This document shows, one piece after another, positions 1-1,794 of a DNA stretch of 56,760 bases (within the stretch, counting starts at the first letter, position 1; the number at the start of each line of letters is the position of its first letter). The position numbers and the translations under genes are program-made. This stretch comes from a virus (taxonomy: Duplodnaviria > Heunggongvirae > Uroviricota > Caudoviricetes): the IMG/VR virus record IMGVR_UViG_3300038499_000012, positions 64,001 to 120,760 of that record; one strand, given 5' to 3'. A model generated the notes under the pieces. The model did not search any database, was not told the DNA's origin, and saw only the letters and a list, made by a program, of their open reading frames with translations.

Positions 1-598
1 TAAGATCGAGATTCCTACTACAGACTCCGAAATCACCCTGATACTTAAAACAGGTCATCGACGATCCGTCAATTTTCACGGAAACGTAGAAAGATTTCCC
101 CTGGTAGAACGAGAGTTCTTCAAGAAGATTTTGAATACGTTCCTCGTCCGTCTTAGGAATGTACCCAGGGAAAGCCCCTCTAACCTCACCAGCCAGGCAT
201 GCTGGCACGGGGGCCTCATAGAGACGAATACCTAATAACTCGGAGACATCTTCTCCTACAGCCATTCCTACGCACTCTGGGAACACGGATAAAGGCATGG
301 CGAGTCCTTGAGAGATCTGTCCGAGTTTCCGAGCTGTTTTGAGTCTGTATCCGAGTTTCTCTATTCCCTCCACGATCATCTTCTTAGGTGACGACCCTTT
401 AGCTAAAAATTCATAACGGGGGAGTACCGGGAGGAAGCTGTCCACCTCATGATAGACACAGATGTCACCCTGCTTAAAATCTGTTTTCAGGGCTACACAC
501 TGCCAACCACGAACCTTCACCAGGCAGATGTTGTCCGCGCCTTCAATGGTAAGGACCTCTTCTATAGTTTCGATTGTCGCAAGCTTTCTCACGGACAT
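1..598 (-). CDS. RNA ligase, DRB0094/DraRnl-like family (3' end runs off the window; not in the supplied ORF track)
   Basis: Manual translation from ATG at 598, with AGGAG upstream: MSVRKLATIETIEEVLTIEGADNI...YHEVDSFLP...YEFL...GYRLKTARKLGQISQGLAMPL...YIPKTDEERIQN...VSVKIDGSSMT...GVCSRN. It has the nucleotidyltransferase motif I KxDG and the RKLA / GQISQGL / KTDEERIQN motifs I recognise from this family. Confidence 0.88.
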   Translation of the reverse strand, partial: MSVRKLATIETIEEVLTIEGADNICLVKVRGWQCVALKTDFKQGDICVYHEVDSFLPVLPRYEFLAKGSSPKKMIVEGIEKLGYRLKTARKLGQISQGLAMPLSVFPECVGMAVGEDVSELLGIRLYEAPVPACLAGEVRGAFPGYIPKTDEERIQNLLEELSFYQGKSFYVSVKIDGSSMTCFKYQGDFGVCSRNLDL

Positions 599-609
599 AC
601 TCCTGATTA

Positions 610-888
610 TTACGGTAATCCATCAACACAGATGCATTCGTTATGCTCACACTTTGGACACGGAAGGTTGGTACGCTTCACCGCAGGGACTTCCATTAAA
701 CTACTCTGATTTTTTAAGGTAGGATCTACCGGCTCCCCTAATACCCATCGCATGGCATATCTGCACGTACAGTCAATACAATAGAGATCGTCATCTTTAG
801 GCCATATAGGACAAAGTTTGGGATTGTCTGTTTCTTGAGCTTTACTACACGCCTTTATAGCGTTCCTGATTTCTGTTTCAGTCTTCAT
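610..888 (-). CDS. Hypothetical Cys-rich protein (CPxW, CxxCxC, CxxC...CxC; possible Zn binder)
   Basis: 92-aa ORF co-oriented with neighbours and ending 11 nt before the ligase ATG. Confidence 0.6.
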   Translation of the reverse strand: MKTETEIRNAIKACSKAQETDNPKLCPIWPKDDDLYCIDCTCRYAMRWVLGEPVDPTLKNQSSLMEVPAVKRTNLPCPKCEHNECICVDGLP

Positions 889-1042
889 GATTTGTGCCCT
901 CTAGGGATGTTATTTCTATAATACCTTCATGTTCTAAGTCAGAGTTGTCAATGTCCAGGAAATGAGCTGATAGATTATTGAGCAACACGTCCAGGTCCTC
1001 GGCTTCTAATATGGTATCGGCAACGAATCGGAATTTTGCCAT
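878..1042 (-). CDS. Small acidic hypothetical protein (54 aa, MAKFRFVADTILEAEDLD...)
   Basis: Manual translation. AAGG upstream of the ATG; overlaps the start of the next ORF and fills the gap in the operon. Confidence 0.5.
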   Translation of the reverse strand: MAKFRFVADTILEAEDLDVLLNNLSAHFLDIDNSDLEHEGIIEITSLEGTNHED

Positions 1043-1066
1043 TAGACCTTTTTCTCTTCGACAGTA

Positions 1067-1261
1067 TTAGCGGGGGCGCTCCTTTTTCTTGTACTCAATA
1101 ATCTTTACACAGCCACCCTCTGGGGTGAATAACGTGTCTACATGTAAAATGTGACTAGACTTTATGAGTATGATTTCATTCAAACCATATTGTTCTCTAA
1201 CAATTTCATAGCGATTACACATCAGAGTCGCGATCAAAAGTATGAGAAGAAATATTCTCAT
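1067..1261 (-). CDS. Small hypothetical protein with hydrophobic N-terminus (64 aa, MRIFLLILLIATLMCN...)
   Basis: The non-tRNA part of track ORF 1067..1498. No clear RBS. Confidence 0.35.
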   Translation of the reverse strand: MRIFLLILLIATLMCNRYEIVREQYGLNEIILIKSSHILHVDTLFTPEGGCVKIIEYKKKERPR

Positions 1262-1272
1262 AAATAAATTAT

Positions 1273-1344
1273 TTGGCGCGAGAGGACTCGAACCTCTAAA
1301 TAGCAGGACCAAAACCTGCTGGCTTGCCATTTGCCGACGCGCCA
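1273..1344 (-). tRNA. tRNA-Gln(UUG), CCA not encoded
   Basis: TGGCGCG/CGCGCCA acceptor stem, anticodon arm GCAGG-TT-TTG-GT-CCTGC, T-arm AGAGG-TTCGAGT-CCTCT. Confidence 0.95.
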
Positions 1345-1350
1345 GAAAAA

Positions 1351-1426
1351 TGGTCGGAGTGACTGGATTTGAACCAGCGACGTCTTGGTCCCGAACCAAG
1401 CGCCCTACCAACTGGGCCACACTCCG
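1351..1426 (-). tRNA. tRNA-Pro(CGG), CCA encoded
   Basis: CGGAGTG/CACTCCG-A-CCA, anticodon arm CTTGG-TT-CGG-GA-CCAAG, T-loop TTCAAAT. Confidence 0.97.
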
Positions 1427-1428
1427 AG

Positions 1429-1504
1429 TCGGAGCGATCCGATTTGAACGGATGGTCCCTGCCACCCCAAGGCAGTGCCTTAGACCAGACTGGGCCACGC
1501 TCCG
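1429..1504 (-). tRNA. tRNA-Pro(GGG), CCA not encoded
   Basis: CGGAGCG/CGCTCCG-A, anticodon arm CTGCC-TT-GGG-GT-GGCAG, T-arm ATCCG-TTCAAAT-CGGAT. Confidence 0.95.
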
Positions 1505-1534
1505 AAAAACAAAAAGGCCCTCTTTCGAGGGCCT
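1505..1534 (-). terminator. Intrinsic terminator (attenuator helix 3:4) immediately upstream of the first tRNA
   Basis: Minus strand AGGCCCTC-GAAA-GAGGGCCT followed by TTTTGTTTTT, which abuts base 1 of tRNA-Pro(GGG). Confidence 0.9.
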
Positions 1535-1569
1535 AGATTCACGACAAAACTATTCGCAGGCCCTCGGGC

Positions 1570-1614
1570 TTAGATGACTCCTGGCTGCGGTTGGGGGTTC
1601 CTGCGAGTGTTCAT
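1570..1614 (-). CDS. Putative leader peptide MNTRRNPQPQPGVI (probably leaderless)
   Basis: ATG AAC ACT CGC AGG AAC CCC CAA CCG CAG CCA GGA GTC ATC TAA. The ATG lies 7 nt after the -10 box and has no SD sequence. Confidence 0.75.
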   Translation of the reverse strand: MNTRRNPQPQPGVI

Positions 1615-1621
1615 GTTTCAT

Positions 1622-1650
1622 AGTATACATCAAGACTGGTCAGATTTCAA
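1622..1650 (-). promoter_or_regulatory. Sigma70-type promoter for the leader/tRNA operon
   Basis: TTGAAA-N17-TATACT (-35 at 1650-1645, -10 at 1627-1622). Confidence 0.8.
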
Positions 1651-1653
1651 GGT

Positions 1654-1794
1654 TTATTTTCCAAGAGGCAATGCCCGAAGCAACTCAAGTAGACTCAGTA
1701 GTAGGACAGCAATCCATAACGGAACCTTCCCCATAGCCGTTCCTACCGTCATTACGAAAGCAGCAATCGCCAGAATCAGCAAGACTGTAAGCAT
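1654..1794 (-). CDS. Small two-helix membrane protein (46 aa; not in the ORF track)
   Basis: AAAAGGAG RBS 6 nt before the ATG. MLTVLLILAIAAFVMTVGTAMGKVPLWIAVLLLSLLELLRALPLGK. Confidence 0.75.
   Translation of the reverse strand: MLTVLLILAIAAFVMTVGTAMGKVPLWIAVLLLSLLELLRALPLGK

Follow-up and report, generated by a model that had tools for sequence, protein, structure and literature searches.

The classical leader-peptide transcription attenuators are those of trpL, hisL and thrL. In phage T4, Rnl1 and Pnkp together repair tRNA-Lys that has been cleaved by PrrC, and the E. coli thrU-tyrU-glyT-thrT-tufB operon is a mixed tRNA-mRNA operon whose tRNAs are released by processing. A proline-codon leader, mgtP, has been described for Salmonella mgtCBR (PMC3641672), and the Salmonella rsr-yrlBA-rtcBA RNA-repair operon is induced by damaged tRNAs (PMC7790460, PMC10159003). 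For jumbo phages, the general pairing of tRNAs with RNA ligases, and also with kinases and TROVE proteins, has already been published (PMC7824862). Our literature search found no paper on attenuator control of tRNA or RNA-ligase genes. We analysed a 56,760-nucleotide stretch of viral DNA (the window; bases 64001-120760 of a 120,760-bp IMG/VR virus record, IMGVR_UViG_3300038499_000012), for which a first-pass annotation had proposed that three tRNA genes and a DRB0094-family RNA ligase share one attenuated transcript and form a "supply plus repair module". CheckV rates the 120.8-kb record as 26% complete, and we therefore regard it as a piece of a giant phage genome. To the window we added 10 kb on its left side; coordinates in this extended locus, L003, equal the window coordinate plus 10000.

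The tRNAs, the leader, three small open reading frames (ORF1-3) and the ligase all lie on the minus strand, in the order promoter, 14-codon leader, antiterminator/terminator, tRNA-Pro(GGG), tRNA-Pro(CGG), tRNA-Gln(UUG), ORF1, ORF2, ORF3 and Rnl5 ligase, and the unit continues past the ligase with a tRNA-Pro-like 5' half and then tRNA-Pro(UGG) (Table 1). We called tRNAs with ARAGORN and Rfam, and scored promoter-like sites on the sigma-70 consensus with a cut-off of 9/12. The order given by the first-pass annotation, three tRNAs followed by three co-oriented small ORFs and an RNA ligase, was confirmed by ARAGORN, Rfam and the ORF list.

The three tRNAs are preceded by a short ORF that begins just past a promoter and is enriched in the codons that these tRNAs read. 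The leader ATG lies exactly 7 nt past the -10 hexamer, and the leader mRNA would therefore be leaderless. The leader has a run of at least five proline or glutamine (P/Q) residues, and no other short ORF of the 120.8-kb record (968 in all) has such a run; in six-frame short ORFs from all sequence examined, a five-P/Q run is restricted to the leaders of the window phage and of a relative, L019. The five leader codons match one-to-one the union of tRNAs in these two phages: the tRNAs with anticodons GGG, UUG, CGG and UGG are in the window phage, that with CUG is in L019, and the window phage also holds a Gln(CUG)-like tRNA remnant. Beyond the leader are an intrinsic terminator and a mutually exclusive antiterminator. 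The antiterminator strand, CGAGGGCCU, begins four bases past the leader stop, and its alternative pairing into leader codons forms an upstream 1:2 helix. Predicted fold energies are -19.1 kcal/mol for this 1:2 helix, including the leader codons, -18.5 kcal/mol for the 2:3 antiterminator and -16.1 kcal/mol for the 3:4 terminator, and the leader as a whole has a folding z-score of -3.1. The terminator stem (1534-1515) is followed by a T-run (1505-1514) that abuts tRNA-Pro(GGG), whose first base is 1504. That the tRNAs sit behind a leader-peptide attenuator is thus well supported computationally, and the word "attenuated" in the earlier proposal was apt: a promoter, a PQPQP leader, alternative helices and a terminator occupy positions 1505-1650, in a design that is kept in L019.

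L019 (also G001), a 94.9-kb contig, was the sole true relative in an exact-word scan of IMG/VR, and it carries the flanking vWA gene at 47% identity. The L019 leader, MKLTIRQPQPQPGYNTRGTCV followed by a stop codon, also starts 7 nt past the -10 hexamer, and the promoter layout matches. An 18-nt codon block, CCCCAACCGCAGCCAGGA, is identical in the two phages and the sequences on either side of it have diverged. The letters of the terminator and antiterminator differ (GAGGGCC/GGCCCUC in the window phage, CGGGGG/CCCCCG in L019), and the 1:2, 2:3 and 3:4 helices are present in both phages with the same topology and unlike sequence; in this one relative, the attenuator design has been conserved through compensating changes. 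The L019 switch is followed by tRNA-Pro(UGG), tRNA-Pro(CGG), tRNA-Gln(UUG) and tRNA-Gln(CUG). Elsewhere on the contig (L019:5010-5290, minus strand) is a tRNA-like element that has a T-arm and a 7-bp acceptor stem without mismatches, and into which ~215 nt are inserted near the anticodon; we rejected a group I intron as the interruption, as no Rfam intron family matched.

Like trpL, hisL, thrL and mgtP, the switch combines a short ORF in which the sensed codons abound with an intrinsic terminator and with 1:2, 2:3 and 3:4 helices that exclude one another. It differs from them in three respects. First, it precedes, and would control, tRNAs and an RNA ligase rather than genes for amino-acid biosynthesis or transport. 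Second, the proposed sensing covers two amino acids and uses five codons, which match tRNAs of the operon itself. Third, the leader is apparently translated from a leaderless mRNA.

We next consider how far a transcript that passes the terminator would extend. Sigma-70-type and terminator scans of the 675 nt that separate tRNA-Gln from the ligase found no terminator-like site and no promoter scoring at least 9/12, and the same promoter scan found no good promoter between the ligase and the distal tRNA-Pro(UGG). The first-pass annotation had likewise noted no strong terminator between the tRNAs and the ligase, just an AT-rich hairpin, and our scans agree: the hairpin, which covers the ORF1 start codon, was not called by the terminator scan and is at most a leaky terminator, a processing element or a translation element. 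Inside the ligase ORF, a terminator-like call at window 57-73 has a weak U-run and was treated as chance. The genes are tightly packed, with ORF2 overlapping ORF3 and the ORF3 stop lying 9 nt before ATG 598 and 15 nt before GTG 592, the two candidate starts of the ligase. Because tRNA-Pro(UGG) and a tRNA remnant directly follow the ligase, the ligase cassette lies inside the tRNA array, bracketed by tRNAs that match leader codons. The simplest reading, to which we give a probability of about 0.55, is that the tRNAs, ORF1-3, the ligase and probably tRNA-Pro(UGG) are carried on one attenuated transcript.

On this reading, a ribosome that reads the leader fast would reach the stop codon and mask the antiterminator, the terminator would form, and transcription would halt before the tRNAs. 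Slow decoding of the Pro/Gln codons, through tRNA shortage, damage or depletion, would instead leave a stalled ribosome that frees the antiterminator, allowing RNA polymerase to read on. The read-through RNA would carry both the tRNAs and the mRNA of ORF1-3 and the ligase, because no recognisable terminator or promoter occurs until past the ligase; RNase P and 3' processing would cut the tRNAs out of it. We infer that stalling controls read-through and that the ligase lies on the read-through transcript. Such a unit would resemble thrU-tyrU-glyT-thrT-tufB in placing tRNA genes and then a protein gene on one transcript, and would differ from it in lying behind an attenuator and in having tRNAs also after the protein genes.

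The ligase runs off the left edge of the window and is complete in L003. PF21189 (PHA02142 N-terminal OB domain) matches residues 6-103 (E = 3e-26) and PF09414 (RNA_ligase) matches residues 169-329 (E = 1e-31); the protein also matches PHROG 968 (RNA ligase; E = 1e-80) and aligns end to end with NgrRnl (PDB 5COT, 340 amino acids; residues 1-337, E = 2e-83). The sequences VKIDGSS (motif I KIDG), QGECVGE, REGIVF and SFKAVSN align to NgrRnl motifs I, III, IV and V, respectively, and 11 homologues all retain K175, D177, G178, E229, E311 and K327. The protein extends 12 residues past motif V and has neither an Rnl1- nor an Rnl2-type C-terminal domain. By domain content and alignment it is a bona fide, intact Rnl5 enzyme of the DraRnl/NgrRnl type, which bears out the assignment to the DRB0094 family. 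It shares with DraRnl (DRB0094) and NgrRnl (PDB 5COT) an OB domain followed by a nucleotidyltransferase domain, the lack of a C-terminal module and the kept motifs, and differs from them in being phage-encoded and inside a tRNA array. The activity that marks the family, sealing of 3'-OH/5'-PO4 nicks with an RNA 3'-OH strand in dependence on ATP and Mn, is a prediction for the phage enzyme. The ORF opens at ATG 598, as the first-pass annotation had it; the true start is probably GTG 592, which has AGGAG 7 nt upstream and fits the homologues, whose sequences open with MRKLATI.

All three small ORFs between the tRNAs and the ligase appear to be real genes. ORF1 has seven homologues of 60-79 amino acids (33-44% identity), each of which has a signal peptide and a lipobox Cys; they share the pattern RQxGLxE...IDT...GG..K in the mature part. 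These hydrophobic N-termini ending in a conserved Cys, together with the conserved mature part, indicate that ORF1 is a small envelope lipoprotein. Family and structure searches gave no function for ORF2 or ORF3; the fold model of ORF3 was poor (predicted local distance difference test score, pLDDT, 55), and all Atlas look-up scores were below 0.9. ORF2 and ORF3 travel with the ligase. A 2220-bp contig is listed for the ORF2 homologue, for an ORF3 homologue and for a ligase homologue of 93% identity, a 5985-bp contig is listed both for another ORF3 homologue and for a ligase of at least 90% identity, and a 79,912-bp contig also carries the ligase at at least 90% identity. Judged from the matching 2220- and 5985-bp contig sizes only, ORF2-ORF3-ligase is very probably a conserved cassette. 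The first-pass annotation had offered the small ORFs as candidate accessory counter-defence factors; that they are genes holds for all three, but ORF1, as an envelope lipoprotein, is not an RNA factor. A member of the ORF3 family also lies within an 18-tRNA array in a 424-kb phage record rated 98% complete (L112:8001-8243, plus strand), where it is translationally coupled to an S-adenosylmethionine (SAM) methyltransferase, with no Rnl5 gene nearby. ORF3 itself may be linked to tRNA arrays.

Past the ligase, the array bears the marks of rearrangement. The first of two tRNA 5' halves begins 1 nt beyond the ligase stop, and ~100 nt beyond it lies the fourth tRNA, tRNA-Pro(UGG), which reads the leader codon CCA. 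At 82 nt and with a long type-II-like variable arm (stem CCC/GGG), it is unusual among proline tRNAs; C1-G72 and A73 are kept. A T9 run follows the first 5' half, and was rejected as a canonical terminator after the ligase for lack of a preceding hairpin. We found no matching 3' halves and no extra T-arms in the record for the two 5' halves. They are remnants, since they can be aligned to the 5' halves of the L019 tRNA-Pro and tRNA-Gln(CUG); split tRNAs joined by the ligase were rejected on the same alignments and on the absence of the 3' halves. On the opposite strand, an HNH/endonuclease-like ORF of 291 amino acids (L003:8556-9431, plus strand) overlaps tRNA-Pro(UGG) by 37 nt at its 3' end; it probably encodes a homing endonuclease that has inserted itself into the array.

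Two further phages place an Rnl5 ligase in an attenuated tRNA array. L048 has two tRNA blocks, each headed by a codon-matched leader and a terminator, and an Rnl5 ligase (48% identity) begins 14 nt past tRNA-Cys in the second block, which has 15 tRNAs and is free of terminators. The 33-codon L048 leader contains all 13 amino acids of its block, as do ~1% of short ORFs. In L035, a leader containing ...NNENERN... and a strong antiterminator/terminator precede two tRNA-Met genes, tRNA-Glu and two tRNA-Asn genes, with an Rnl5 ligase (51% identity) 1.5 kb downstream of the tRNAs. L048 and L035 are unrelated to the window phage, with Rnl5 placed independently in attenuated tRNA arrays. ARAGORN also reports in L048 (L048:2301-2377, plus strand), within an array of 18 tRNAs, a tRNA with a four-base anticodon (gaaa), which may be frameshift-suppressor-like or a miscall.

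Several observations weigh against a single transcript, most of them from the distribution of the ligase. L019, despite its switch and tRNAs, has no Rnl5 gene anywhere on its 94.9-kb contig. L026 and L028 share the vWA gene, L028 additionally sharing the AAA and UvrD genes, and have no tRNAs or ligase, carrying other small genes instead. Among the ligase loci retrieved with flanking sequence, the four closest (60-64% identity) contain no tRNA; a tRNA is nearby at only ~8 of 80 metagenome Rnl5 loci; and in the cultured phages S-CREM1, Mic1 and phiM12 the ligase has no tRNA gene within 6 kb. The ligases of L035 and L005 are directly preceded by promoter-like sites. Within the window phage itself, the hairpin at 1241-1262 with its UUUU could stop a fraction of transcripts; the array is scarred by two tRNA 5' halves, a decayed ORF2 copy and the opposite-strand HNH gene; and the cassette is functionally mixed, because ORF1 is an envelope lipoprotein. 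Lastly, our promoter scan used the sigma-70 consensus, to which phage-specific promoters would be invisible.

Relatives were few: single-protein IMG/VR scans with ORF3 or the vWA protein gave no close relatives, and alignment-based scans gave L026-L028 and L112. Twelve of the 14 IMG/VR Rnl5 loci do have a tRNA nearby; nine of these (L007-L014 and L016) share one layout at ~33-34% identity, and look like one clade for that reason. In the cultured Pseudomonas phage vB_PseuGesM_254, an Rnl5 gene precedes a same-strand tRNA-Arg by ~670 nt. We rejected a general enrichment of tRNAs near Rnl5 genes, since the frequency among metagenome loci, ~10%, is not clearly above that for a random giant-phage gene. 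Judged from these comparisons, the ligase block is a mobile, lineage-specific accessory cassette that landed or was kept in the tRNA array of this phage, within a hypervariable island, and is not the ancestral partner of the attenuator. A conserved "supply plus repair module" is not supported: the L019 switch and tRNAs come with no ligase, and tRNAs are missing around the closest ligase relatives for which flanks were obtained. What supports the proposed single transcript is the attenuator, the absence of a recognisable separating signal, the distal tRNA that matches a leader codon, and the ligases embedded in the arrays of L048 and L035; the linkage is not conserved.

The alternative that fares best under this evidence is that the tRNAs and the ligase are chance neighbours. 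ORF1-3 and the ligase would then be a separate moron with its own unrecognised promoter, in a hypervariable island between a conserved vWA/AAA module and a UvrD helicase, and the tRNA transcripts would end or be processed at 1241-1262. The island differs in content in every relative, the unit that recurs (judged from matching contig sizes) is ORF2-ORF3-ligase, and the rearrangement scars and the tRNA-free flanks of the closest ligase relatives point the same way. We nevertheless consider chance proximity somewhat unlikely. It has to accommodate 675 nt with neither a promoter of at least 9/12 nor a real terminator, a ligase bracketed by leader-matched tRNAs, and the L048 ligase, which begins 14 nt past a tRNA and therefore leaves no room for a promoter.

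A second alternative, with or without co-transcription, denies the ligase a role in tRNA metabolism: during replication or repair of the phage DNA, the enzyme would close nicks with RNA ends, in duplex RNA or in RNA:DNA hybrids, as has been suggested for DraRnl in radiation resistance, and possibly with a UvrD-type helicase. According to one study, Rnl5 enzymes seal 3'-OH/5'-PO4 nicks in duplexes with an RNA 3'-OH strand, loss of DraRnl sensitises D. radiodurans to ionising radiation, and the physiological role of Rnl5 is undetermined even in Deinococcus (PMC5397189). Both the nick specificity and the radiation phenotype would fit such a role, as would the Microcystis phage Mic1, whose ligase adjoins primase and FEN genes, and the UvrD helicase 1.8 kb downstream in L003. 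The lack of end-healing enzymes also favours it. We found no match to AAA_33 (Pnk), PNK3P, Metallophos, RtcB, RlaP or 2H on the 120.8-kb record (~26% of the genome), and control genomes responded to the same searches. The Pnk/phosphatase partners that the first-pass annotation had suggested looking for beyond the left edge were thus found neither there nor elsewhere on the fragment. We also rejected a methyltransferase (L003:5462-5980) as a Hen1-like partner, as it had no solved-structure match and its Pfam hits were generic. With no end-healing enzyme on the fragment and a lipoprotein as ORF1, a coherent repair module is unsupported.

The missing Pnk is nonetheless compatible with tRNA repair. 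Metal-dependent Toprim nucleases such as P2-OLD cut the tRNA anticodon stem, leaving 3'-OH/5'-PO4 ends, and T4 Rnl1 and Rnl2 reseal a single such nick without a healing step (PMC12445682). A duplex-nick sealer like Rnl5 would suit damage of the P2-OLD type. Since stem nicks can be resealed without Pnk (PMC12445682), and since Rnl5 genes occur in the tRNA arrays of at least three unrelated contigs (the window phage, L048 and L035), we regard a function unrelated to tRNA as unlikely. The candidate substrates would be 3'-OH/5'-PO4 nicks in tRNA stems or other duplex RNA; tRNA as the substrate is purely conjectural. Decidedly unlikely, in our estimate, is the most specific version of the single-transcript reading, in which a stall sensor switches on replacement tRNAs and a nick-sealing ligase in one transcript against host nucleases that leave 3'-OH/5'-PO4 ends (Toprim/PIN), with ORF2 and ORF3 as cofactors, in a unit repeatedly assembled in giant phages (the window phage, L048 and L035).

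A single transcript encoding tRNAs and the ligase would resemble T4 Rnl1 plus Pnkp, and the repair sets of jumbo phages, in the idea that a phage insures itself against host nucleases that target tRNA by bringing tRNAs and an RNA ligase of its own. It differs from T4 in that the ligase is an Rnl5 enzyme, expected to act on duplex nicks, whereas T4 Rnl1 acts on the anticodon loop, and in that the fragment lacks a kinase, phosphatase, 2H, RtcB or RlaP partner. In the literature on T4 and jumbo-phage repair that we searched, no attenuator link is described.

A wider grouping can also be drawn. The region left of the unit in L003 contains the HNH gene, small basic proteins, the UvrD helicase, the methyltransferase, a glycosyltransferase, Y RNAs and a Ro60 orthologue (TROVE and Ro60 vWA domains; L003:2609-4138, minus strand), the last preceded by a YrlA-like hit (L003:4310-4380, minus strand; 38 bits, below the gathering score). 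On the minus strand, a terminator call that combines a G+C-rich stem with a solid U-run is next seen only past Ro60, with three weaker calls between. The locus shares with rsr-yrlBA-rtcBA an RNA ligase tied, as we propose, to tRNA damage, and Ro60 and Y RNAs encoded nearby; it differs in that RtcR binds tRNA fragments and the ligase is RtcB there, as opposed to a proposed ribosome-stall sensor and Rnl5 here. One reading of this locus is an RNA quality-control island that unites the tRNA-ligase unit with the Ro60 (TROVE-vWA) gene and Y RNAs 5 kb downstream, as a phage counterpart of rsr-yrlBA-rtcBA in which Rnl5 replaces RtcB. The induction of the Salmonella operon by damaged tRNAs (PMC7790460) would fit, as would the reported co-occurrence of tRNAs, RNA ligases and TROVE proteins in jumbo phages (PMC7824862). 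We consider this reading very unlikely: the HNH gene on the opposite strand intervenes, as do the helicase, methyltransferase and glycosyltransferase genes, the Y RNAs have their own promoter-like site, and the two parts do not stay together in relatives.

Table 1. Features of the tRNA-ligase locus. Positions are those of the window unless preceded by L003.
Feature	Position	Strand	Remarks
Sigma-70-like promoter, TTGAAA-17 nt-TATACT	1622..1650	-	Promoter scan; matching layout in L019
14-codon leader ORF, MNTRRNPQPQPGVI and stop	1570..1614	-	Control codons CCC CAA CCG CAG CCA
Antiterminator strand, CGAGGGCCU	1558..1566	-	9-nt exact complement of terminator 5' arm; folds
Intrinsic terminator	1505..1534	-	8-bp G+C-rich stem, GAAA loop, U-run; -16.1 kcal/mol
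tRNA-Pro(GGG)	1428..1504	-	ARAGORN, Rfam 52 bits
tRNA-Pro(CGG)	1351..1426	-	ARAGORN, Rfam 67 bits
tRNA-Gln(UUG)	1273..1344	-	ARAGORN, Rfam 56 bits
Weak A+U-rich hairpin over ORF1 start codon	1241..1262	-	8 bp, 2 G-C pairs, -6.7 kcal/mol, four U after
ORF1, 64 amino acids, small lipoprotein	1067..1261	-	7 remote homologues
ORF2, 54 amino acids, very acidic	878..1042	-	94% homologue on 2220-bp contig; overlaps ORF3 start
ORF3, 92 amino acids, Cys-rich	610..888	-	5 homologues, 70-79% identity
Rnl5 RNA ligase, N-terminal 199 codons	1..598	-	Full gene L003:9579-10598, 339 amino acids, runs off left edge
tRNA-Pro-like 5' half	L003:9530-9578	-	1 nt past ligase stop; resembles 5' half of L019 tRNA-Pro
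tRNA-Pro(UGG), fourth tRNA	L003:9395-9476	-	525-606 bases left of window start; Rfam 54 bits
Decayed partial ORF2 copy	L003:8435-8487	-	53 nt, 77% identity; 2.5 kb downstream of intact ORF2
Second tRNA 5' half	L003:8335-8378	-	Resembles 5' half of L019 tRNA-Gln(CUG)

Other observations concern genes around the unit and in the contigs used for comparison. Directly upstream of the attenuator promoter is a hydrophobic ORF of 46 amino acids (window 1654-1794, minus strand); it matched no family and possibly encodes a small membrane protein. In L028, the UvrD match is split into two pieces ~750 nt apart within one ORF of 880 amino acids (L028:12607-15249, plus strand), suggesting an intein or other insertion. 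The 64-kb contig L032, which holds a ligase homologue of 63% identity, also encodes a PARP-like protein with WGR, PARP regulatory and catalytic domains (L032:3384-4847, plus strand) and a Csx3-like protein (L032:7948-8379, minus strand).

If the tRNAs, ORF1-3 and the ligase are indeed carried on one attenuated transcript, a translation rescue unit that responds to demand would exist in giant phages, in which a switch known from amino-acid operons would be re-used to sense tRNA availability and would deliver spare tRNAs along with an enzyme that seals RNA. Rnl5, a poorly understood family, would gain a testable physiological setting, and the arms race over tRNA between phages and the bacterial defences that cleave it would acquire a regulatory layer.

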